Below are positions 48,382 through 62,672 of a DNA stretch of 64,000 nt, piece after piece. The notes beneath the pieces are model-generated. The model searched no databases, had not been told where the DNA came from, and worked only from the letters and a program-made list of their open reading frames with translations. The position numbers and the translations under genes were made by a program. Location of the stretch: the NCBI GenBank assembly GCA_963738405.1, contig CAVTWJ010000002.1, forward strand, positions 136,575-200,574. The letters are read 5' to 3'. Each line of letters opens with the position of its first letter. Within the stretch, counting starts at the first letter, position 1. The stretch is from a candidate division FCPU426 bacterium. Lineage in GTDB: Bacteria > Oederibacteriota > Muellerivitia > Muellerivitales > Muellerivitaceae.

Positions 48382-49197
48382 CTAACTTTGACCGCCATTT
48401 CGGCTAATAGCGTATTCGCGCAAAATCCGCTCGTACTTTTCAATGGAATGGTCGGCGATCAGGCTCAACCAGCTGAACGGATTGAGGTAGGCTCTCCATC
48501 GATGGTAGACGGCTTCGCTTCCCTCGCAAAGCTTGTTGTCATCGGACAGATACCGAACATCCCCATAGGCGCGGTATCCCATGAACAAAAAGGGTACTCC
48601 TGGAACGATGTCCACGTGGTGGAAACAGCGGTAGACGGGCACCTTGAAAATTCGATCGACGAACGAATCATTTCCAACGCGGGGACAGCCATAGTTGTAG
48701 CAGGCGGCCAGTTTTTGCCGGTCGCTCAGGAAGATGGAAGCCAAAAGGGACAAGGCCCCGCCCAAACTATGCCCCGTCACATAAACCGGGACTTTTATTT
48801 TTCGCAAAGCCGGCGCGATCTGCTCGGCTAATTCCTTGTATGCGTCCAAAAAGCCTTGGTGAACCTCGCCGTACCGGGTCTGGACGAGCCAGAAATTCAA
48901 ATCGGTCTCGACCGTCCCCCATTCTTTGGGCACCGTCCCCTTGAAAGCCAAAACCGCGAAGGTTTTATGGACGGCCAGATAGGCGGAATTATTGCTCTTC
49001 TTGCAGATGAATTGATTTTTGAGGGTCAACCCAAAGGCGGCAAGCTCGGTTTTCAATTGGGGCACTTGTTGATCAAGATAAGCCAGCCTGGAACAGCCGG
49101 CCAAGATCCAAGCCGTTCGGTCCGAATAGCCGTTCCGGTCCACCGGAGGTTGTATCAGATTTTCATTGGTTTTTTTCGGAACCTTCAAGCTTTCCAT
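48382..49197 (-). CDS. Lipase class 3 family protein
   Basis: LAFKGT, VHQGF, VTGHSLGGAL, YGCPRVGN, DIVP, DHS. Confidence 0.9.
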   Translation of the reverse strand: MESLKVPKKTNENLIQPPVDRNGYSDRTAWILAGCSRLAYLDQQVPQLKTELAAFGLTLKNQFICKKSNNSAYLAVHKTFAVLAFKGTVPKEWGTVETDLNFWLVQTRYGEVHQGFLDAYKELAEQIAPALRKIKVPVYVTGHSLGGALSLLASIFLSDRQKLAACYNYGCPRVGNDSFVDRIFKVPVYRCFHHVDIVPGVPFLFMGYRAYGDVRYLSDDNKLCEGSEAVYHRWRAYLNPFSWLSLIADHSIEKYERILREYAISRNGGQS

Positions 49198-49755: not shown

Positions 49756-51357
49756 TTAATCGGCGATTCCCAATTTTTTCATCAAGTCGTTCGAGAAGAA
49801 ATCCATTAAACGCGGGTCCCCCCCGAATAATTTCTTTCGTTGGGCCTTCCAGACGGCCACATTGTCCCGGGCGCCGTCCTTATAAAGTTCCACCAGTTTC
49901 GCGCCGTCCAGTTTGAAATTAAACGCGTCCACCGGATAGCCGTATTTGGTCTCCTCCGGCCCCACGGGCAGGTATTTGCCCCAATGGAAGGTGAACTGAA
50001 TCTTGTTCGTCTCAAATTCCACCAGGGCGTCGTTGATGTATTTCAGCACCCGGTCGCACCCCAGGCCGGCGATCTCAAAAACGCAGGTGCGGTCGAACCG
50101 TTGAAAGGCCAGAACCCCCTTCACCTTCGGCACGTAGCGCATCTCGTACCAAACAGGAATATTGGCGTTATTCAGCGTTTGGCAAATCCGCATGGCCTGG
50201 AAGCAATTTTTCATGTCCATTCCGATAGAGCAGACGATCGACCCCGGGCCCACGTTGGTGATATAGGGGTTCTGGTCCACCAGGGTTCCGGTTTGGTTAT
50301 TGATGGGGGGGTAATGGTTCGCGAAGAAGGTATTCACGATGGGGCCCACCAGCATCGGCGCCACACCCGTCAGCTGGGCCATGGTCGTGACCAGTTCCTC
50401 GCCCGAAGGGTCCAGGGCGTTTTGAATCGGGTTATTGTTCAGTTTGGTCTTGTGCATGACGGTGACGACCGCCGTCTTGGTTTTGTCATCCGCGTAGATG
50501 TTGTTCATGACCTCGAAATGGTAAAGGGTCTCCGGGGTGGCGCCCTTAAGGTCAATGCCCGTGAAGTCGAATTCGGTCATGGCTTTTTCGAGGGAATTCA
50601 AATCCGCGTAGTAACGGGAAGCGTCCAGGTAAAAGGAGTCGGTGGCTTCCACCAGGGTTCCGTGGATAACGCCGAAGCCCCCCAAATGGTTGAGGGCTGA
50701 ATAAAAAAGGTCGTCGTCCAATAAAAAATCCTCTTTTTTGATTCCCAGCTTGTTGACGAATAGGTCGGTCACGATGGGATTGCTTTGGAGGCCCAGCCAA
50801 ACGTGCCGGTCGGGGCCCACGATCACATGAAGGCCCCTCACCGCGTCCTGCAGGGCGCCCATCCCCACTCCCCCGCCGTTGAAAGCGGAACCGTGGGTCC
50901 CGGTGGTAAAGGCCCCGACGAAGGATTGGCCGCAGCTGGAACCGGAGACCGGAAGGGTTTTATTAAGCTGGGCCAGGGCCATCTGGGCGTCGTGGATGGA
51001 CATGCCGCATTGGAAAAAGAAAAAGTTTTCGCTCTTGTTGCCGGGAAGGACATAGGGGGGATCCAGGTAGAACCAGGTTTTTAGGTACTGGGAGGCCAGC
51101 ATGTAGCCCTCCGTGGCGGCGACCTTGGAGAAAGACCATCCCGCCCCCAAAACCCGGCCCCGGGCGCCCTGGGCGATCAAGTCTTTGATGAGGCCCTGAA
51201 TCTCGGAAGTCTGGGTCAGGTAATCCGACAAGGTCTTGCTGGTGTCGAAGGGATTCGGGTTGTGGAGTTCGTACATGCCCTTGATGGCCTGCGTAAAAAC
51301 CCAATGGGCATTGGTCCAGGACGTTATTTGCTTTTTAAAATAATCGGTAATGGGCAC
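49756..51357 (-). CDS. FAD-binding oxidoreductase (aldonolactone oxidase/VAO-type fold)
   Basis: RVLGAGWSFS, GQSFVGAFTTGTHGS, LGGFGVI, FHWGK. Confidence 0.85.
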   Translation of the reverse strand: MPITDYFKKQITSWTNAHWVFTQAIKGMYELHNPNPFDTSKTLSDYLTQTSEIQGLIKDLIAQGARGRVLGAGWSFSKVAATEGYMLASQYLKTWFYLDPPYVLPGNKSENFFFFQCGMSIHDAQMALAQLNKTLPVSGSSCGQSFVGAFTTGTHGSAFNGGGVGMGALQDAVRGLHVIVGPDRHVWLGLQSNPIVTDLFVNKLGIKKEDFLLDDDLFYSALNHLGGFGVIHGTLVEATDSFYLDASRYYADLNSLEKAMTEFDFTGIDLKGATPETLYHFEVMNNIYADDKTKTAVVTVMHKTKLNNNPIQNALDPSGEELVTTMAQLTGVAPMLVGPIVNTFFANHYPPINNQTGTLVDQNPYITNVGPGSIVCSIGMDMKNCFQAMRICQTLNNANIPVWYEMRYVPKVKGVLAFQRFDRTCVFEIAGLGCDRVLKYINDALVEFETNKIQFTFHWGKYLPVGPEETKYGYPVDAFNFKLDGAKLVELYKDGARDNVAVWKAQRKKLFGGDPRLMDFFSNDLMKKLGIAD

Positions 51358-52065: not shown

Positions 52066-52992
52066 CTATAAAAGTTTTTTTATCCTCTTACGATAATTTT
52101 TAGCCGCTCCAAAATTTAGTTGTCGCATATAAGCTGTTTTACCTTGCATTGATTTAAGCTCATTCGAATTAATCGATTTTCCATCAACGAGTTTTTGCTC
52201 CATATCTAATAATTGTTTTCGATATTCTCTCATTTTTTCTTTAGGGACATCAGGGCCATCCGTAACATCAACCCCCGGCGTTATTTTTCTTTCGCCGCTC
52301 AAACTCTGAAGAGTTTTTTCTGGATGCCATGTAAAACCATGATGTTCGATTGTCTTTTTTGCAGATTCGAGCATGTAATCTTTAGTTGAGGGCGGGCCAG
52401 ATAAGCAGCCATCATCGCCATAAAAAGTAAATTCACCGTGAAATTTTTCGGCCACCTTTTTCAATTGGGCCGCAACACCATTGCCCTCTCCGTAGGCGAT
52501 CAAAGCGGCTATTGCCGGACTCGTCAAAGCGCCCTGAGGTATTTCATCATTAAGGGTGGTTAGCTTTGCTAAACACCAGGCAACTTCCTTTGAAAGCTTC
52601 ATGGTTTTCTCAAAAAATTTTAGTACTCTCGTAAAATGAATACTTGGAAAAAAATCTTTTATATCGATCTTCACTAATACACTTGCACGAAAATGGGGTT
52701 TGGCGTTCGTTAAAATGCTTTTCCCTTTTGACCCGGTTTGCATGTAATCAGGCAAACTCATTCGACCCAAAATTAATTTTATCTTTTTTTGTAACTCTCT
52801 TAAATTTTTATTCGGATTAGATATCTTCCGCAATTTCCCTGATTTTTTTGGCTCGAATTTAATCCGATAATGCTTCCCTGTGTTGTCACAAATCCATCGC
52901 AATTGTTTTGGCGAAATGCCAAGAAATGAACTCAATTCGTCAATCGAAGAGATGCTAATTTTTGTTTCATCGGAAGGAAGGTGGCTAAACAA
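52066..52992 (-). CDS. Retron-type reverse transcriptase
   Basis: KKSGKLRKISNP, NAKPH (retron NAxxH region X), KIDIKDFFPSI, IPQGALTSP, YGDD, HPEKT, ITPGVDV (region Y, VTG-like); no maturase/HNH domain. Confidence 0.88.
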   Translation of the reverse strand: MFSHLPSDETKISISSIDELSSFLGISPKQLRWICDNTGKHYRIKFEPKKSGKLRKISNPNKNLRELQKKIKLILGRMSLPDYMQTGSKGKSILTNAKPHFRASVLVKIDIKDFFPSIHFTRVLKFFEKTMKLSKEVAWCLAKLTTLNDEIPQGALTSPAIAALIAYGEGNGVAAQLKKVAEKFHGEFTFYGDDGCLSGPPSTKDYMLESAKKTIEHHGFTWHPEKTLQSLSGERKITPGVDVTDGPDVPKEKMREYRKQLLDMEQKLVDGKSINSNELKSMQGKTAYMRQLNFGAAKNYRKRIKKLL

Positions 52993-53200
52993 AACAAACG
53001 TCTCCGTTTTCCAACATATAGTTATTGATTATGGAATCCCACGCCGCCAATAACTCCGCCACCCACTTGATAACCCCCATCCCCTTGAAAAGAGCTGGAA
53101 GGATAAATAGGTAGGGCTTTAATAGCTGTCGGACCCGCCTTGAAGTACTTTCCCTTGAAACTTTTAACAAGGATTTCCTTCGGTTCGTCCTTTTGGCCAT
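52985..53200 (-). CDS. 71-aa basic/amphipathic small protein coupled to the RT (candidate effector or accessory protein)
   Basis: Strong SD AAAGGGGGTGA before ATG 53200; Arg/Lys-rich N-terminus then hydrophobic helix; stop overlaps the RT start. Confidence 0.65.
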   Translation of the reverse strand: MAKRTNRRKSLLKVSRESTSRRVRQLLKPYLFILPALFKGMGVIKWVAELLAAWDSIINNYMLENGDVCFV

Positions 53201-53204
53201 GCTG

Positions 53205-53520
53205 ATCACCCCCTTTGCATTAATTCGTGGACGTCAGGCGGACCGATTCGGAGTAAATAATCGGCTCCATAAATAACTAAATTCGCATTTTTCATGCGAT
53301 TCAATTTTCTTAATAAGAACAAGAAAATCTAAGAAATCAAGATTCTAAACTTTTAACCCATTGCCCAAAGATGCAAGGAGCAATAAAGAAGAACCAAGAC
53401 TCTAGAACCACCGGCAATTGTTTCAAAAAAAATGGCAACCGGGGGGGTCTGTACGGTGGGGTGATTAACACCCATGTCCACTTCGGGGTGAGGCCTTTGC
53501 CTCCTTTCGAATTCTAAAAT
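53205..53520 (-). ncRNA. Putative retron msr-msd-like structured ncRNA
   Basis: End-to-end complementarity (53476-53491 with 53206-53232) enclosing hairpins at 53243-53264, 53283-53299, 53304-53328, 53361-53383 and 53459-53473; lies directly upstream of the small ORF and RT. Confidence 0.6.
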
Positions 53521-53529
53521 GCTAAATTT

Positions 53530-53558
53530 AATTTAAGGCGAGATGAATTTATTAACAA
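53530..53558 (-). promoter_or_regulatory. Candidate sigma70 promoter of the retron-like locus
   Basis: TTGTTA-N17-TAAATT on the minus strand. Confidence 0.35.
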
Positions 53559-53650
53559 GGGGTTGGGATGTTTTAAAAAAAACGTCAAAAATGCGGAATT
53601 TTCACAAACAAGGGGGCAAGGCCCCTATTTTATTCACAACGCAAATGGGT

Positions 53651-54250
53651 TTATTTCGGATGCACTGTAAAATTACTCCTGTTTTTTACTCGCCCGATTT
53701 TAGGAACATCACCTTTTGAAATACTTTTTAACAATTTTTTCAACTCATTAGATTGGCCATAAAAAACTTCGCCAGTCGATAATTGGACAAAAGCCCATCT
53801 TGCTTTAAAGAAGTCCCCAAGTGCATAAAACCTAATGGGAATGCTAGCAAAAAACTCAGTTCTGCTTTCCAAAACTACCGGCCAATCCAAATCCTTTTGC
53901 AACCGGTTAAAAACCCTATTAGGTATTTCTGCCGGAAATCTCGCCATATTCTTTTTCGCCTCAATTAACCCTACCATACGAACTTGAACCGGAAATGAAG
54001 ATTTATTCACGATTTCCAAAATAACCTCAGTACTCATTTCTTCCTTTTGGGGTTTCCCGCCTTTTTCCCCGACAACAGTGACCGATATTAGGTGTGGTTT
54101 TATTAAAACTTTCGCTTTGTCCTTGTTTCGGTTATAGAAAAAATTAGCAAGACTCAACACAAACCCAAACCAAGCAGCCAGCATTGTTAGTATTCCTAAA
54201 ACAATAGTTAAAATATCTTTCAGGGATATGTCAGAAATGGTAAAGGTCAT
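53651..54250 (-). CDS. Hypothetical protein with N-terminal TM helix (AT-rich)
   Basis: Hydrophobic residues ~13-38 followed by a soluble beta-rich domain. Confidence 0.65.
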   Translation of the reverse strand: MTFTISDISLKDILTIVLGILTMLAAWFGFVLSLANFFYNRNKDKAKVLIKPHLISVTVVGEKGGKPQKEEMSTEVILEIVNKSSFPVQVRMVGLIEAKKNMARFPAEIPNRVFNRLQKDLDWPVVLESRTEFFASIPIRFYALGDFFKARWAFVQLSTGEVFYGQSNELKKLLKSISKGDVPKIGRVKNRSNFTVHPK

Positions 54251-54254
54251 CTTT

Positions 54255-54728
54255 TTAGTCCTTCAGTTTTTTGAGAAAACCAGAAATCTTTTCAGGCGAC
54301 GTCCAATTACCACCCATTTGGCCGAATTGGATAATTGGCTCGGAGGACCCATCCTTCATCACCCGAAAAATAGTTAGTGAATGCGGTTTTCGTGGAAACA
54401 TAGAGCCGAGGAACGAAGCAACTCTACCTGGAAAATCTGTTTTATTCCAAGTCAACGAAAAGGCTTCCGGCCCCTCTTCAAAAGGAATCACTCCATAGGC
54501 ATAATCACCTTCAGGCGCCTCTTTCATAATTCTTTTCCAATGGACTTCCAATTCATCAACAAAACGCTTTTTTTCTATGGGGTGGTCAAAATCTTCTCTT
54601 AAGTACTTGGAAGTCACATTTTCCTTAAAGCCACAAATACATTGGCCAAAATACTTAATGCCTTCCTCATCCCCACCTGAATAAACCGTTAGTTCTCTAC
54701 CACACCGTTCACAAATGTACTTGTCCAT
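54255..54728 (-). CDS. Hypothetical protein with N-terminal Zn-finger-like motif
   Basis: GGAGAGG RBS; CERC...CIC. Confidence 0.65.
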   Translation of the reverse strand: MDKYICERCGRELTVYSGGDEEGIKYFGQCICGFKENVTSKYLREDFDHPIEKKRFVDELEVHWKRIMKEAPEGDYAYGVIPFEEGPEAFSLTWNKTDFPGRVASFLGSMFPRKPHSLTIFRVMKDGSSEPIIQFGQMGGNWTSPEKISGFLKKLKD

Positions 54729-54797: not shown

Positions 54798-57700
54798 CTA
54801 GGATAACAGCCACTCCAGTTCCTCCCGTTTTAAGCCGCTCAAGAAACCTTTCTCACTCCCAAAAACAGCCTTGGCCAGTTTCCGCTTTTTCGCCTGCATC
54901 TCCAATATTTTCTCTTCCACCGTGCCCCGGGTGATGAGCCGATAGGCAAAAACATGCCGGGTCTGGCCGATGCGGTGGGCGCGGTCCATAGCTTGGGCCT
55001 CCACCGCCGGGTTCCACCAGGGGTCCAGCAGGTACACGTAATCCGCTGATGTTAGGTTAAGCCCAAGGCCGCCCGCCTTGAGGCTGATGAGGAAAAGTTT
55101 GCACTCGTCATCTTCCTGAAACCTTCTCACCTGCTCTTCCCTATCCCGGCTTTTACCGTCGAGATAGGCAGTGCCTAAATTCAAGGGCGCGAGGTGTTTA
55201 CGGAAGATGGAAAGGAAAGAAGTGAATTGGGAAAACACCAGTACCTTGTGCCCCTCAGACAAGACTTCCTGCAACTGGGGTATAAGCATTTCCAACTTGG
55301 CGCCCAAAAGATGTTTCTGGGCGGAATCCACCAAACCCGGATGGCAGGCCACCTGGCGAAGCCTCAAGAGCGCTTCGAGGACGTGCATCTTCGATTTGTT
55401 TAAGCCTTGGCTCTCCACTTTTTCCATCAAGGCTTCCCGGTAATGACGCCGCAAGCCGTCGTAAAGGGAACGTTGTGAGGAATCCATGTCGCAGAAAAGC
55501 ACCTGCTCGGTCTTGGCCGGCAGGTCCTTGGCCACGATATCCTTGGTGCGGCGCAGGAAAAAGGGCCTCAAGGCCCTTGAGAGAAAAGTCTGGCTATCCT
55601 TTTCCGAGGATTCCATGCCCGAAACCATGTCGAGGGCTTTGGAGGCCCCCAGCATGCCGGGGTTGAGGAATTCAAAAAGGCTCCACAGCTCGTCCAGGTT
55701 GTTCTGGACGGGAGTTCCCGTCAGGGCCAGCCGATGGTTGCCTTTCAAAAGGCGCACGGCCTTGGCGCTTTCCGAGCGCGGGTTTTTAATGACGTGCGCT
55801 TCATCCAAAATAACGTAATCAAATGTGTGATTTGCCAGCCAGGAGGCGTCCCGGCGCAGGGTGCCGTAGGTGGTGAGGATCAGGTCATAATTCGAAAAAG
55901 ATTTCCCGGTCTTGGTGCGCAGGATGCCCGTGTGGTCCAACAGCCACAACCCGGGGGTGAATTTCGCGGCTTCCCCCATCCAGTTGAAGATGAGCGATTT
56001 GGGGACCACCACGAGTGAAGGTTCCCGCCGGGTTTTCTTTTCTTGGAGTTTGCCCCTTTCGAACCGCCGGTTTTCCATTAGGGCCAAGACCTGCACGGTT
56101 TTCCCCAGGCCCATATCGTCGGCCAGACAGCCGCCGAAACCAAACTCACGCAAAAATTGGAGCCATCCCAACCCTTCCCGCTGGTAGGGCCTCAAGACGC
56201 CCTTGAAATCACCCTGGGGGTTGGCGGGTTTAACGCCCTCAAACTGCCGGAGCTTTTGCCGAGCCTCCAGGAAAGCCTTGTCGCCGGGAATTTCGGGTTG
56301 GGCCGCCAAAAGCGTGTCCAGAAGGCCCACTTGGTTTTGCTTGAAGCGAAGCCCTTTCTTTTCTTCTTTCCCCATCCGGGAAACCATTCCCCACTTGGCC
56401 AGCCATTCTTCGGGCATGATCCCGTAGGTTCCGTCGTCCAGAAGCACGGTCCTTTGCCCTTTTCGAAGGGCATCCAAAAGCGCCTCCACGGGCGCTTCCA
56501 CGCCGTCAAACTGGCCGTTTAGTTTCAGTTCAAACCAATCCAACCCGGAAGAAACCTTCGCGCTCAGGCTTGCCCCGCCGCGATAAAGTTTTCCCCGCGC
56601 TTCCACGTGCCATCCATCCCGCACCAGGGCCACCACCGCATCCGGCAGGCGGTTGGCGGAGATTTCCCAGTAATAACGGATTTCCTTAATCCCCTCGCTT
56701 TTTAACTGGAAACCCAGAGGAGCCAGTTTAGCGGCCTGTTCCCTTTCGGCCTCCCGGTCCCTTTCCCATAAAATCCGTTCCTTGGCCTGGTAAAGGACGA
56801 CACCCGCGTTTTCCGCCTTGGCCCCCAAGCCCTCATAGTTGAAGGAAAGGTCCCCCCACAAAAGGGTTTCGCCCGCCTCGCCCTTGGCAGGGGCCAAAAG
56901 AAGGCGGGGTTTGGGCTTGATCTTGCGGCGCTGGGGTTTTAAATCATCCGGCAAATCCAAATCGGGCGGCGGGACCGGCCTTCCGTAAAAGCCTTCCAGA
57001 AAATCATCGGCTTCCTTTTGGGGGATGGTTAAGAAACCCCAGGCGCCCAATTCTTTGACCCACAGTTCATCTTTTTCATTCTCAAGCCTCAAGAGCCTGT
57101 CCCCGGCCAAAAATAAACCCGAACCCTTCAAGACCTTCGTTTGGTTCAAGGCAAGCTGTTCCTTCCCACGGTTAAGAAGGCCCGTGAGGTGAAACCCCTC
57201 TTCCTTCCCGGCGGGGGCCAAATGTAACCGCAGGCTCCATGGCTTTTCCCCGTCCCACGTTAAGGAGGTCAGGGCTTCTTCCTGGGTGGTTCGGTTGTCG
57301 TAAAGGCACCGGCCCGTGGAACAAGCCAAGGGAAGTACCTGCCGGGCGGCCGCCGCCGATAGCCGGTACTGGGAACTGGCCTGGTTATGATTGGCGGAGG
57401 TGGAATAACTAAAAAAGGAATTGGCGGCGGGTTTGAACCCCCTTAGGAGGCCGAATAGTTCTTTGTCTAAGGGGGTCACCTGGGAAGGCCACGCGTTGTC
57501 GCCCAGCTTGAGGGGCGCCATTTTGCTCCACTGGCCGTCTTTTTTGCGGTAACACTTCAAGAGTTGGAGCAGGATTCCGCCTTGGACCCCGGAAGGATCG
57601 GTCCCCACCACATAAAACATGGATTCTTCGGCCCCGAGAGAGTGCCCGGCGTTTCCCAAAGAAGGGGCGCTGACCGCCCACTTAAGCGCGTCCCGCCAAA

Positions 57701-58118
57701 CAGGCCTTTGGGCGTTTGAAGGCAGGCGTGCGGGCGTTTGAGGGCCGGGGAAAGATTGGTTTTCTTCTCCGCCGTCCAGTTCCTCATCCTCATCCACCAG
57801 GGCTTTATGAAGATCGGGGGAAAGGCCTTCCACATCTTTCCAAAGACCCTGTTCCGAACAGGCGAGGATCACGGCCCAAACATGTTTGCAGTCCCCAAAC
57901 CCATCCGTGTTGTAGGGGCAGTCGCAACTCATCGCGACCTTGTTACCCTTCAACTCAAGCGAAACCCCGTAACGCCGGGACCCCCGGACAAAGGCCCTGA
58001 CGGAATGGCGGTCGGCCATTTCCAGTTCCACTTTCCCCTGATAAAAATAGGCGTCACCCCTTTGCCGGACGCGTTGGGGGAAATAAGGTTTCAGTTTGTT
58101 TTTAAGGCTCTGGGTCAA
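54798..58118 (-). CDS. SWIM Zn-finger SNF2-family helicase
   Basis: CDCP...CKH (SWIM); [47 protein letters not shown]. Confidence 0.95.
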
Positions 58119-58615: not shown

Positions 58616-58942
58616 TTAATCTTGTTTTTTAAGTGCTTGAATCAATTCAGGAACTCGTTCTTGGACCGTCCGCCAAATTTCCTCTAAATCCCAATTACGG
58701 TAGTCGTGAATTAATTTGTCCCGCATCCCGGCAACTTTCTTCCAGGGGATCTCAGGTAACGTGGCGCGGAAATCGTTGGAAAGGCCTTTCACCGCCTCCC
58801 CAATGATGACCAATTCCATGAGAACAGCGGCTTGGGTCTTCGAGTCCTTGAAAAATTGTTCCTGGTTCATGTCCTTCGTGAATGACAAGGCATGTTGTCC
58901 CGCCAAAAGGATATCGGCGGCAAGGGCTTTATCCCGCGACAT
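58616..58942 (-). CDS. HEPN/DUF86 RNase toxin (HepT-like)
   Basis: IIGEAVK...IPWKKVAGMRDKLIHDY (Rx4HxY). Confidence 0.9.
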   Translation of the reverse strand: MSRDKALAADILLAGQHALSFTKDMNQEQFFKDSKTQAAVLMELVIIGEAVKGLSNDFRATLPEIPWKKVAGMRDKLIHDYRNWDLEEIWRTVQERVPELIQALKKQD

Positions 58943-59243
58943 AGTAGGGTTCGGAACCGGACAATATGGAATCTCGGCGTATCCGATTCTCACTGCGTTC
59001 AACCGAACGGCGGGTTAATAGGTCAACCTTTCGGCCAATAATCCCGGCCAGTTCTTCTTCCATGCTCATGTGGTCGAAAAGGTCCCATTTCTCGTCGGAA
59101 GCGAAGGAAACCAAAACATCCACGTCACTGTCGGGGCGAAAGTCATTTCGAATCGCTGAACCAAAAAATGAAAGCTCCGTAATCTTCCATTTCCGGCAGA
59201 AGGTTTCAACTTGGGAACGGTCAATTTGAACCTGTAGGCTCAT
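58929..59243 (-). CDS. Minimal nucleotidyltransferase antitoxin (MntA-like)
   Basis: FFGSAIRNDFRPDSDVDVLV (GSx10DxD), GRKVDL. Confidence 0.9.
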   Translation of the reverse strand: MSLQVQIDRSQVETFCRKWKITELSFFGSAIRNDFRPDSDVDVLVSFASDEKWDLFDHMSMEEELAGIIGRKVDLLTRRSVERSENRIRRDSILSGSEPYYVAG

Positions 59244-61631: not shown

Positions 61632-62672
61632 TTAAGCCAGTCCGGGTTGGATCCTCCTGCCCAGGACCACATAGGGGCTGTGCATACCGGCTTTGCCCTT
61701 GATCATGACCGGGGGCAGTTCATCCAGGCGGAAGTTATCCCCGGCCGCGTGGGCCATGTCCTGGGTAATCAGGATCTGGCCGTCTTTCGCCAGGCCGCAA
61801 AGGCGGGCGGCGAAATTGACCGTATCCCCAATGACCGTAAATTCCATGCGCCGGGCCGAGCCCAGGTTACCCATGATGACGTTCCCCGCCGCCAGCCCGA
61901 TCCCCAGGCCCGTTTCCACTTCCTCACTGTAGTTGCCCTTGAAGGTGGCCAAAATCTGGTGGAACCCGTCCTGCATTTGCAGGGCCGATTGCAGGGCCTT
62001 TTGGACCGATTCGGCCTCTTTGCCGGGGGGATAGGGGTAAAAGGCCAGGATGGAGTCGCCCATGAACTTGTTAATCTCCCCGCCCGAAAAGGTGATGATT
62101 TCTTCAAGTTCGGTGAACATCCGGTTGAGGTAGCGCACCGTTTCCTGGGTTTTAAGCTTCTCGGTCATGGCGGTAAAGCCCCGCACGTCGGAAACCAAAA
62201 CGATGGCGCTGGTCAGTTCCCCCTCCCACACGGCCTTGTTGCCCTTGGACGTGGCGAATTGGGAAGCCCGGGTGCCGACGAACTTGTCCAGGATATGCCG
62301 GCTCTCGACCAGCTTTTTCTCGGTTCCGCTGAAGTTGGCGTAGGCCAGGTCCAAAATCTCTTTTTTCTTGACCGCGATGGCCTTGGGGGAAAGCTTACGG
62401 ACGATCTTGTAATCCTCTGGCAAAACCCTGCACCGAAGAAGGAAAGATTGAAGTTCCAGAAGAAGGGCGTCTTGGGCCCGCCACCAGAAGGCACGGGCGG
62501 CCAAAAGCAGTAGGGCAGCCGAGGCGACCCCGCAGGCCAAGGCGGCCAGAGGGGACTGGGTGAAGTACCAGCTGACGGCCCCGGTGATGATGCCCGTGCC
62601 GAGAACCCAAATAACGGGCATGGCTTTGCCCGGCGGGTCTTGTTCTTTTTTTACGTCGTTTCCATTGGACAT
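61632..62672 (-). CDS. Class III adenylate cyclase, membrane anchored
   Basis: Two TM; SDVRGFT, INKFMGD (Lys indicates ATP specificity), FTVIGDTVNFAARL, IKGK. Confidence 0.92.
   Translation of the reverse strand: MSNGNDVKKEQDPPGKAMPVIWVLGTGIITGAVSWYFTQSPLAALACGVASAALLLLAARAFWWRAQDALLLELQSFLLRCRVLPEDYKIVRKLSPKAIAVKKKEILDLAYANFSGTEKKLVESRHILDKFVGTRASQFATSKGNKAVWEGELTSAIVLVSDVRGFTAMTEKLKTQETVRYLNRMFTELEEIITFSGGEINKFMGDSILAFYPYPPGKEAESVQKALQSALQMQDGFHQILATFKGNYSEEVETGLGIGLAAGNVIMGNLGSARRMEFTVIGDTVNFAARLCGLAKDGQILITQDMAHAAGDNFRLDELPPVMIKGKAGMHSPYVVLGRRIQPGLA

Follow-up and report, generated by a model that had tools for sequence, protein, structure and literature searches.

This study concerns a retron-type locus in a 64,000-nt stretch of DNA (hereafter the window) from a candidate division FCPU426 bacterium (assembly GCA_963738405.1, contig CAVTWJ010000002.1). 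Retrons are bacterial anti-phage systems built around a reverse transcriptase. A structured non-coding RNA (ncRNA) of around 290–320 nt is followed by a gene for a 71-aa small protein (SP) and then by a gene for a 308-aa retron reverse transcriptase (RT), the retron occupying window 53,5xx-52,066 on the minus strand. On balance it is probable that the locus is a divergent member of the Type VI retron family without a helix-turn-helix (HTH) gene, in which a closed fold of the ncRNA would keep synthesis of the SP low until reverse transcription relieves it. An RNA switch of this kind is plausible here by analogy with a published system, although unproven for this locus. All coordinates are positions in the window, and the retron features lie on the minus strand.

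The start codon of the SP gene is preceded, at a distance of 5 nt, by the heptamer GGGGUGA (53212-53206), a Shine–Dalgarno (SD) sequence lying within the run GGGGGUGA (53213-53206). The exact complement of this heptamer, UCACCCC, occurs twice in the 309 nt upstream, each copy within its own hairpin. An earlier, sequence-only reading of this DNA had pointed out that the first copy (53491-53485) is complementary to the SD of the 71-aa open reading frame (ORF), and that, nested inside it, GUGGAC (53481-53476) can pair with GUCCAC (53232-53227) and GGGUG with CGCCU; all of this is present in the sequence, the last pairing making use of G-U pairs. It had also noticed the second UCACCCC, which does exist but lies at 53464-53458, one base away from the position it had been given (53463-53457), and had proposed for it a local hairpin, GGGUG-UUAAU-CACCC, that was confirmed in the predicted folds. 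Read along the transcript, the 5' element is ...GAAAGGAGGCAAAGGCC-UCACCCC-GAA-GUGGAC-AU-GGGUG-UUAA-UCACCCC (53491 down to 53458) and the 3' element is CGCCU-GAC-GUCCAC-GAAUUAAUGCAAAG-GGGGUGA(53212-53206)-UCAGC-AUG(53200), with AU-rich stem-loops filling the roughly 215 nt between them. From end to end the closing repeat measures 286 nt, its 3' end lying at the SD of the SP gene, and a 3x14 loop breaks its helix into stretches of 7 bp and 6 bp. The elements are as follows.

53482..53511, minus strand: hairpin H1, GAGGC (53503-53499), loop AAAG, GCCUC (53494-53490), from the local fold.
53485..53491, minus strand: anti-SD copy 1, UCACCCC, pairing with the SD as 5' arm of the outer closing helix.
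53469..53481, minus strand: a1-like arm, GUGGAC (53481-53476), AU, GGGUG (53473-53469), from the sequence.
53458..53473, minus strand: hairpin H2, GGGUG-UUAAU-CACCC (53473-53459), containing anti-SD copy 2.
53464-53458, minus strand: anti-SD copy 2, UCACCCC, inside the H2 element.
53241..53457, minus strand: internal ncRNA stem-loops, candidate reverse-transcription template, from minimum-energy folds.
53265-53241, minus strand: hairpin adjoining the a2-like arm, from minimum-energy folds.
53227..53240, minus strand: a2-like arm, CGCCU (53240-53236), GAC, GUCCAC (53232-53227), from the sequence and folds.
53206..53213, minus strand: SD GGGGGUGA for the SP gene, serving as 3' arm in the outer closing helix.
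52985..53200, minus strand: SP, the 71-aa ORF, ATG at 53200-53198, a putative toxic effector by position.
53019..53035, minus strand: stretch of the SP coding region predicted to pair at long range, as a 3' arm, with ncRNA 53279-53266.
52066..52992, minus strand: retron-type RT, 308 aa, TTG start, from RVT_1, RT_VI and the tree.

By heptamer count, two SD complements so close together exceed chance. None of 1000 dinucleotide shuffles contained two copies and 2% contained one (mean 0.02), while the 25 occurrences of UCACCCC over the 128 kb of both strands of the whole window correspond to about 0.06 expected per 300 nt. The shuffle test is the weaker because the heptamer was picked after it had been seen. 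SD cores in general precede 11 of the 26 long ORFs of the window, versus 12% of random positions. The best partner of the SD region is copy 2, where 53470-53458 against 53212-53200 gives 12 of 13 positions paired with a single A-C mismatch, and this extended pairing reaches the A of the AUG.

The RT matches Pfam RVT_1 (1.7e-13), and its best PADLOC model is RT_VI (1.8e-63, 212.5 bits), with RT_III-A next (184.9 bits) at a margin of 27.6 bits; all 25 RT matches listed by PADLOC are retron RT models, and the retron families of NCBIfam are matched at sub-threshold level only. Its motifs are NAKPH, PQGALTSP, YGDD and ITPG; NAKPH is an instance of the retron motif NAxxH and YGDD of the catalytic motif YxDD, and ITPG stands in place of the VTG that usually follows the catalytic domain. 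N96, A97, H100, D193 and D194 do not vary across the RT alignment, and the two catalytic aspartates are retained. Its only close relatives among 5.8 billion clusters are P0002 (86% identical) and P0003 (73%), both from metagenome contigs, and the remaining matches are 27-35% identical. These three RTs have YGDD rather than YADD and (I/V)TPG rather than VTG (residues ~190-245); the other nine aligned retron RTs have Y/F-x-DD and VTG or ITG, and the G of the latter motif is invariant. A scan of one genome per species yielded 80 RT loci, the best of them 35% identical, and tblastn searches of plasmids (198 records) and phages (43 records) gave nothing above 33% among the matches listed, and nothing that reached 60%. 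In a tree of 92 RTs, made without a labelled reference Type IV or V outgroup, the window RT, P0002 and P0003 form a clade (support 100) that is sister to the RTs of three of the scanned loci, L001-L003 (support 96), and this group is joined by L038, L046 and P0004 (support 86). Judged by its sequence, the RT belongs to the retron RTs and has affinity to Type VI, which is clade 3 of Mestre et al.

The Type VI trait of a Cro/C1-type HTH protein (cl2_1 / HTH_VI) encoded immediately 5' of the RT gene or in overlap with it was not found at this locus. There is no room for such a gene between SP and RT, because the two overlap, the SP stop running 8 nt past the TTG start of the RT. A hidden Markov model (HMM) made from three HTH_VI genes found nothing in window 48-58 kb at E <= 10, although it recovers all five HTH loci among the 80 RT loci. 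HTH families matched none of 30 stop-to-stop frames (at least 45 aa) in 51.7-54.8 kb at E <= 0.1, the 31st frame, that of the RT, being excluded, and PADLOC gave no HTH match among the four neighbouring proteins. An HTH gene is encoded in ~78% of 158 Type VI entries, according to the available text of one report (Garcia-Rodriguez et al., 10.64898/2026.04.27.721009), and the titles and abstract openings of the two other papers found on type VI retrons point to no HTH-less member. With no HTH gene, restraint at the level of RNA would be the obvious remaining candidate.

The SP has a basic N-terminal half (11 K/R in residues 1-29) and a hydrophobic C-terminal half, with a maximum 19-residue hydropathy of 1.49 at residues 26-44. 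A single-sequence AlphaFold2 model has two helices (5-37 and 43-65; mean pLDDT 67). No family in Pfam, PADLOC or NCBIfam matched it, and no homologue was found in an exhaustive search of 1.84 billion representatives or in a word-based search; the sole other match, a 689-aa repeat protein at 8.5e-06, was taken to be spurious. With the SPs of L001-L003 it shares 11-17% identity. By its position the SP would be the toxic effector.

Two upstream features bear on the limits of the transcript.

53611..53626, minus strand: terminator-like GC hairpin, GGGGCCTTGCCCC then a T-rich tail, 3' of the upstream 199-aa ORF.
53530..53558, minus strand: candidate promoter TTGTTA - 17 nt - TAAATT, found by eye, 8/12 consensus positions.

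The hairpin is likely to be the 5' limit of the retron transcription unit. If the candidate promoter is used, the transcript would start near 53523; the promoter scan lists nothing at 53530..53558, a candidate with 8/12 positions falling under its threshold.

The folds described here are single-sequence minimum-energy predictions. For the ncRNA alone (53510-53190) the predicted fold has an energy of -94 kcal/mol (z = -2.28, with 4 of 100 shuffles as stable) and includes the 7-bp SD helix and the 6-bp GUGGAC:GUCCAC helix at a pair probability of 0.98; the GGGUG:CGCCU pairing is possible but is displaced by H2 in minimum-energy folds. For a transcript running from 53525 to +20 of the SP ORF, here called ncRNA-only, the minimum is again the closed fold, and freeing the SD costs +5.1 kcal/mol; in the ensemble, however, the SD pairs mostly with 53379. 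The Type VI trait of an ncRNA upstream of the SP gene, with the SP ribosome-binding site in its basal stem, is thereby reproduced in silico for a transcript of this kind. H1, flanked by UUCG (53511-53508) and CGAA (53485-53482), hides part of anti-SD copy 1 using an SD-like GGAGG; the local fold that contains it (53515-53450) has -20.8 kcal/mol, and H1 recurs in the minimum-energy folds of long transcripts. There, both anti-SD copies are tied up locally, each paired to a G-rich partner within H1 or H2, and because each copy can hide in this way, the ncRNA could sit with the SD either closed or open. When the whole ncRNA and SP gene are folded together, a new long-range helix is predicted between 53279-53266 and 53035-53019, within the ORF.

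The canonical Type VI loci offer a comparison. At five of the 80 loci (L001, L002, L003, L038 and L046) a Cro/C1-type HTH gene lies directly upstream of the RT gene, and for L001-L003 PADLOC calls it HTH_VI and the RT RT_VI. Farther upstream all five have an ORF for a small protein together with non-coding DNA of 330-400 nt, and they follow the canonical Type VI order ncRNA-SP-HTH-RT. They were folded in the same way, each from a guessed promoter as far as +20 relative to the SP start, and in all five the predicted 3' arm of the closing stem overlaps or directly adjoins the SD of the SP gene: at L003 with 11 bp on the SD, at L001 with a partial overlap that takes in the AGAG of the SD region, at L002 with an arm that stops 3 nt before the SD, and at L038 and L046 with an arm lying over an SD-like GGAAGGA farther upstream, the proximal SD being paired to the first codons. 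At L001 (2703-3294), L002 (3362-3965) and L003 (3394-3976) the SP is 134-154 aa long and its ORF shares ~100-190 nt with the HTH ORF in a different frame, which may reflect wrong start or end calls or may be real.

The closest published parallel is Retron-Vpa2 of Vibrio parahaemolyticus. In the available text of its description (Zhang et al., 10.1101/2025.10.22.683967), ncRNA and SP gene are joined in a single 'hybrid RNA', stem-loops enclose the ribosome-binding site and start of the SP, the SP is translationally repressed, and msDNA made by the RT derepresses it, even in trans; the HTH protein represses reverse transcription and its loss is toxic, and the proposed riboregulator is a pair of conserved 7-nt direct repeats. 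The locus resembles this system, as far as that text describes it, in having a structured ncRNA followed by an SP gene whose SD can, by prediction, be sequestered in RNA structure, and the two UCACCCC copies likewise form a pair of direct repeats of 7 nt. It differs in that its repeats complement the SD exactly and are both found close to the 5' end, in having no HTH gene and in an SP without detectable relatives. The RTs of the two systems can be called alike only at the level of the family.

A second parallel is the cl2075 Type VI lineage of Retron-Sen3 and 53 relatives. As given in the available text (Garcia-Rodriguez et al., 10.64898/2026.04.27.721009), the ncRNA lies within ~280 nt of the SP start, has terminal inverted repeats and a basal stem that includes the ribosome-binding site of the SP, and shows a 5-bp stem-loop just 5' of the 5' repeat and long-range pairing around the SP gene, from the ncRNA to the end of the SP region. 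In Retron-Sen3 itself SP and complementary DNA (cDNA) are constitutive, and the SP is neutralised post-translationally by the HTH antitoxin; Type VI SP toxins have a two-helix core and belong to highly diverse families (10.64898/2026.04.27.721009). Measured against that text, the closing repeat of the present locus likewise ends at the SP SD, spanning its 286 nt; H1, whose stem of 5 bp carries a loop of 4 nt, resembles the stem-loop and shares 2 nt with the repeat; the SP is likewise predicted to be two helices; and the helix 53279-53266/53035-53019 recalls the long-range pairing, although such pairing between the ncRNA and the 3' part of the SP gene was no better than chance in a crude duplex test (52% of 500 shuffles as good). 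Unlike Retron-Sen3, the locus has no HTH antitoxin gene.

Canonical retrons such as Retron-Eco1 (Ec86) have an ncRNA closed by a1/a2 terminal repeats, with internal stem-loops and an RT gene downstream; the terminal inverted repeat is where retron RTs prime, and the msDNA acts as antitoxin to an effector encoded elsewhere in the operon. The locus shares with this msr-msd plan the closing terminal repeats, the internal stem-loops and the downstream RT, and by analogy with it 53241..53457 would be the reverse-transcription template. It departs from it in that the closing helix is interrupted, no priming G beside the a1/a2 helix can be assigned from the sequence, and Rfam gives no match: nothing reached the gathering score in the whole window, and 52800-53800 gave only three chance-level matches at E <= 10. 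Within the ncRNA, at 53283-53299 on the minus strand, there is a terminator-like hairpin, UCGCAUG-AAAAA-UGCGA followed by AUUUAGUUAU, which could be an attenuator or a plain msd stem-loop. The sequence-only reading had also mentioned short ORFs inside the ncRNA. The 40-aa frame it cited (ATG 53475, inside a 42-aa GTG ORF at 53481-53353) is indeed open, but these micro-ORFs are not counted as genes because no family matched them; by eye, no SD-like sequence lies at the usual distance either. A further analogy, without homology, is to the hok/sok-type type I toxin mRNAs, in which the ribosome-binding site of a small hydrophobic toxin is closed by long-range pairing within the mRNA itself and opened by processing; no antisense RNA gene is present here, and the proposed opener is reverse transcription.

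Taken together with these parallels, the following course of events can be proposed. The ncRNA and the SP gene are probably carried on one 'hybrid' transcript. Because the 3' arm of the terminal repeat is itself the SP SD, the closed ncRNA would exclude the loading of ribosomes on the SP gene, and by analogy with Retron-Vpa2 the closed fold may hold SP translation low. Translation would rise when the fold is disturbed by reverse transcription, by the build-up of cDNA or by cutting of the template by RNase H, and phage infection may be what triggers the disturbance. The sequence-only reading had likewise proposed that the toxin is held silent by the ncRNA fold and released by reverse transcription. 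It is partly supported: the architecture is right, the mechanism is plausible here, and the energy-based controls stand at the level of chance; the idea is sound but not new, since the mechanism has been demonstrated experimentally for Retron-Vpa2, as its available text reports.

Several results weigh against this interpretation. The 5' end of the transcript that was folded (53525) was guessed, and the length of the transcript matters: in transcripts ending at 52980 or 52900 an SD-free fold lies within +0.2 kcal/mol of the minimum and the closing stem costs +3.6 to +3.8 kcal/mol, so that folding, which had been suggested as a check, predicts the closing stem for the ncRNA alone but favours the SD-free fold once the SP coding region is included. 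The SD-closed and SD-open folds are near-equal in predicted energy; this fits a switch, yet so small a difference falls inside the energy model's error and is no evidence for one. The energy-based tests fail to set the site apart from chance. The best SD duplex has -23.7 kcal/mol, a value reached by 5.5% of 1000 shuffles, which lie at -19.7 +/- 2.4 kcal/mol; the mean unpaired probability of the SD is 0.10, versus 0.21 with the upstream sequence shuffled, and 15% of 150 shuffles were as low. A test of far-upstream duplexes was not significant for the window (p = 0.22), and over six loci gave individual p values of 0.03-0.48 and a combined p = 0.055. An SD made of a G-run can pair somewhere in most sequences. 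The tree that places the RT was obtained by quick IQ-TREE, and the stem of the window clade is long (1.38), which makes the placement less certain. No SP homologue was found, despite RT relatives at 86% and 73% identity in the same database. Finally, Retron-Sen3 has its ribosome-binding site in the basal stem and yet makes SP constitutively, according to the available text (10.64898/2026.04.27.721009).

This last point leads to the main rival explanation, that the closing stem is only the a1/a2 priming helix and the overlap with the SD a by-product of tight packing, with the next gene beginning immediately behind the ncRNA, the SP being translated all the same and restrained or activated at some other level. 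The example of Retron-Sen3, where, as far as its available text goes, the SP is constitutive and controlled post-translationally in spite of its basal-stem ribosome-binding site, speaks for this, as do the full-length folds, which leave the SD open, and energy tests that do not rise above chance. Set against them are the want of an HTH antitoxin gene, which would leave a constitutive toxic SP with no known restraint, the presence of two exact heptamers where one priming helix needs fewer (0/1000 shuffles), and a copy 2 pairing that reaches the start codon. Incidental overlap is a real possibility, but a tentative one, clearly less probable than control by the fold.

It is also conceivable, though unlikely, that the 71-aa ORF is not a gene at all, the region 53,5xx-52,993 being simply the ncRNA and 5' leader of a retron that is decaying or has only an RT, and the 'SD' just the G-rich arm of an RNA helix. 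The SP has no family match, and neither the 1.84 billion representatives nor the word-based search held a homologue although the database has RT relatives. Yet the contigs of those relatives are short (P0002, 9,683 nt; P0003, 1,597 nt), so their SPs may be missing or uncalled, and SP families are reported to be highly diverse (10.64898/2026.04.27.721009, available text). Moreover, the ORF has an SD-like sequence 5 nt from its ATG and an 8-nt overlap with the RT start, which is typical operon packing, and a 71-codon frame is uncommon in DNA of 41% GC, with its many stop codons (estimated at ~1% per start). Type VI operons carry an SP at exactly such a position, as the available text on Retron-Vpa2 has it (10.1101/2025.10.22.683967). 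A local riboregulator working without reverse transcription, in which copy 2 pairs from SD to AUG with H2 as the anti-anti-SD, switched by temperature, by kinetics during transcription or by binding of a protein, namely the RT itself, has in its favour that copy 2 forms the best SD-region duplex (-23.7 kcal/mol, 12/13 paired) and that this state is only 3.0 kcal/mol above the minimum in the ncRNA-only transcript, but it is very improbable, as the same state costs 5.3-6.5 kcal/mol in longer transcripts, cannot (from the coordinates) nest with the GUGGAC:GUCCAC helix, and has no retron precedent in the literature consulted.

Control of the SP by the ncRNA fold, relieved by reverse transcription, is thus preferred, and a bolder version of it may be sketched, although it is doubtful: an HTH-less Type VI lineage with purely RNA-based control of the toxin, in which two anti-SD modules make the fold bistable and cDNA tips it to the SD-open state. 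The two tandem modules would each have their anti-SD heptamer masked by a G-rich partner. A possible route is offered by the loop 8-mer ACUCCGAA (53254-53247), in the hairpin adjoining the a2-like arm, whose cDNA could pair at 7 of 8 positions with ACCCCGAA (53489-53482); the two 8-mers differ by one base and the latter overlaps anti-SD copy 1, a likeness found by eye that chance could produce. Since the RT start overlaps the SP stop, opening of the SD could also raise RT translation, and this would amount to a self-amplifying trigger needing no protein antitoxin.

The retron and two further ORFs lie in a low-GC island at ~51.8-54.8 kb (34-44% GC, against ~52-62% around it), which looks like a horizontally acquired cassette. 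No tRNA genes were found in 48-60 kb, and no direct repeats flank the island, the longest shared word being 9 nt. The 199-aa ORF (53651-54250, minus strand) has an N-terminal hydrophobic segment and one relative at 86%, on a 1,210-nt contig; the 157-aa ORF (54255-54728, minus) has, by eye, an N-terminal CxxC...CxC motif. Neither has a family match, and ESM Atlas gives only unnamed clusters for them. Adjoining the island is a 1106-aa SNF2-family helicase (54798-58118, minus), for which the best PADLOC models are DpdE and ZorD-like (1.9e-139) and the nearest NCBIfam entries, under their cut-offs, are SCO1167 or the pilus-regulating Snf2; its N-terminus has a CxC...CxH pattern that is SWIM-like by eye and not reported by Pfam. 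A HepT-like ribonuclease (58616-59002, minus; PF01934, 3.4e-26), the toxin half of HepT/MNT pairs, lies farther on. A class-3 lipase (48382-49197, minus), an FAD-binding oxidase-like protein (49756-51357, minus) and a protein with an adenylate/guanylate cyclase domain (61632-62672, minus) are ordinary neighbours, none of them linked to the retron.

What sets the locus apart from known Type VI retrons is the absence of an HTH gene, an SP without detectable relatives, the dual exact anti-SD and an RT of the YGDD/TPG kind. With it, the layout that places the ribosome-binding site within the closing stem is carried to a far-removed branch of the family: among RTs whose DNA could be examined, the nearest are 31-35% identical. 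Because the general idea is already in print, the gain is one of breadth and of a simpler model system rather than of a new principle. As far as the available texts go, both studied Type VI retrons rely on an HTH protein, Retron-Vpa2 as a repressor of reverse transcription and Retron-Sen3 as an antitoxin. An HTH-less natural relative with an unrelated SP and a duplicated exact anti-SD would be a clean test case for whether an RNA fold alone can silence a retron toxin, and for whether cDNA opens that fold.

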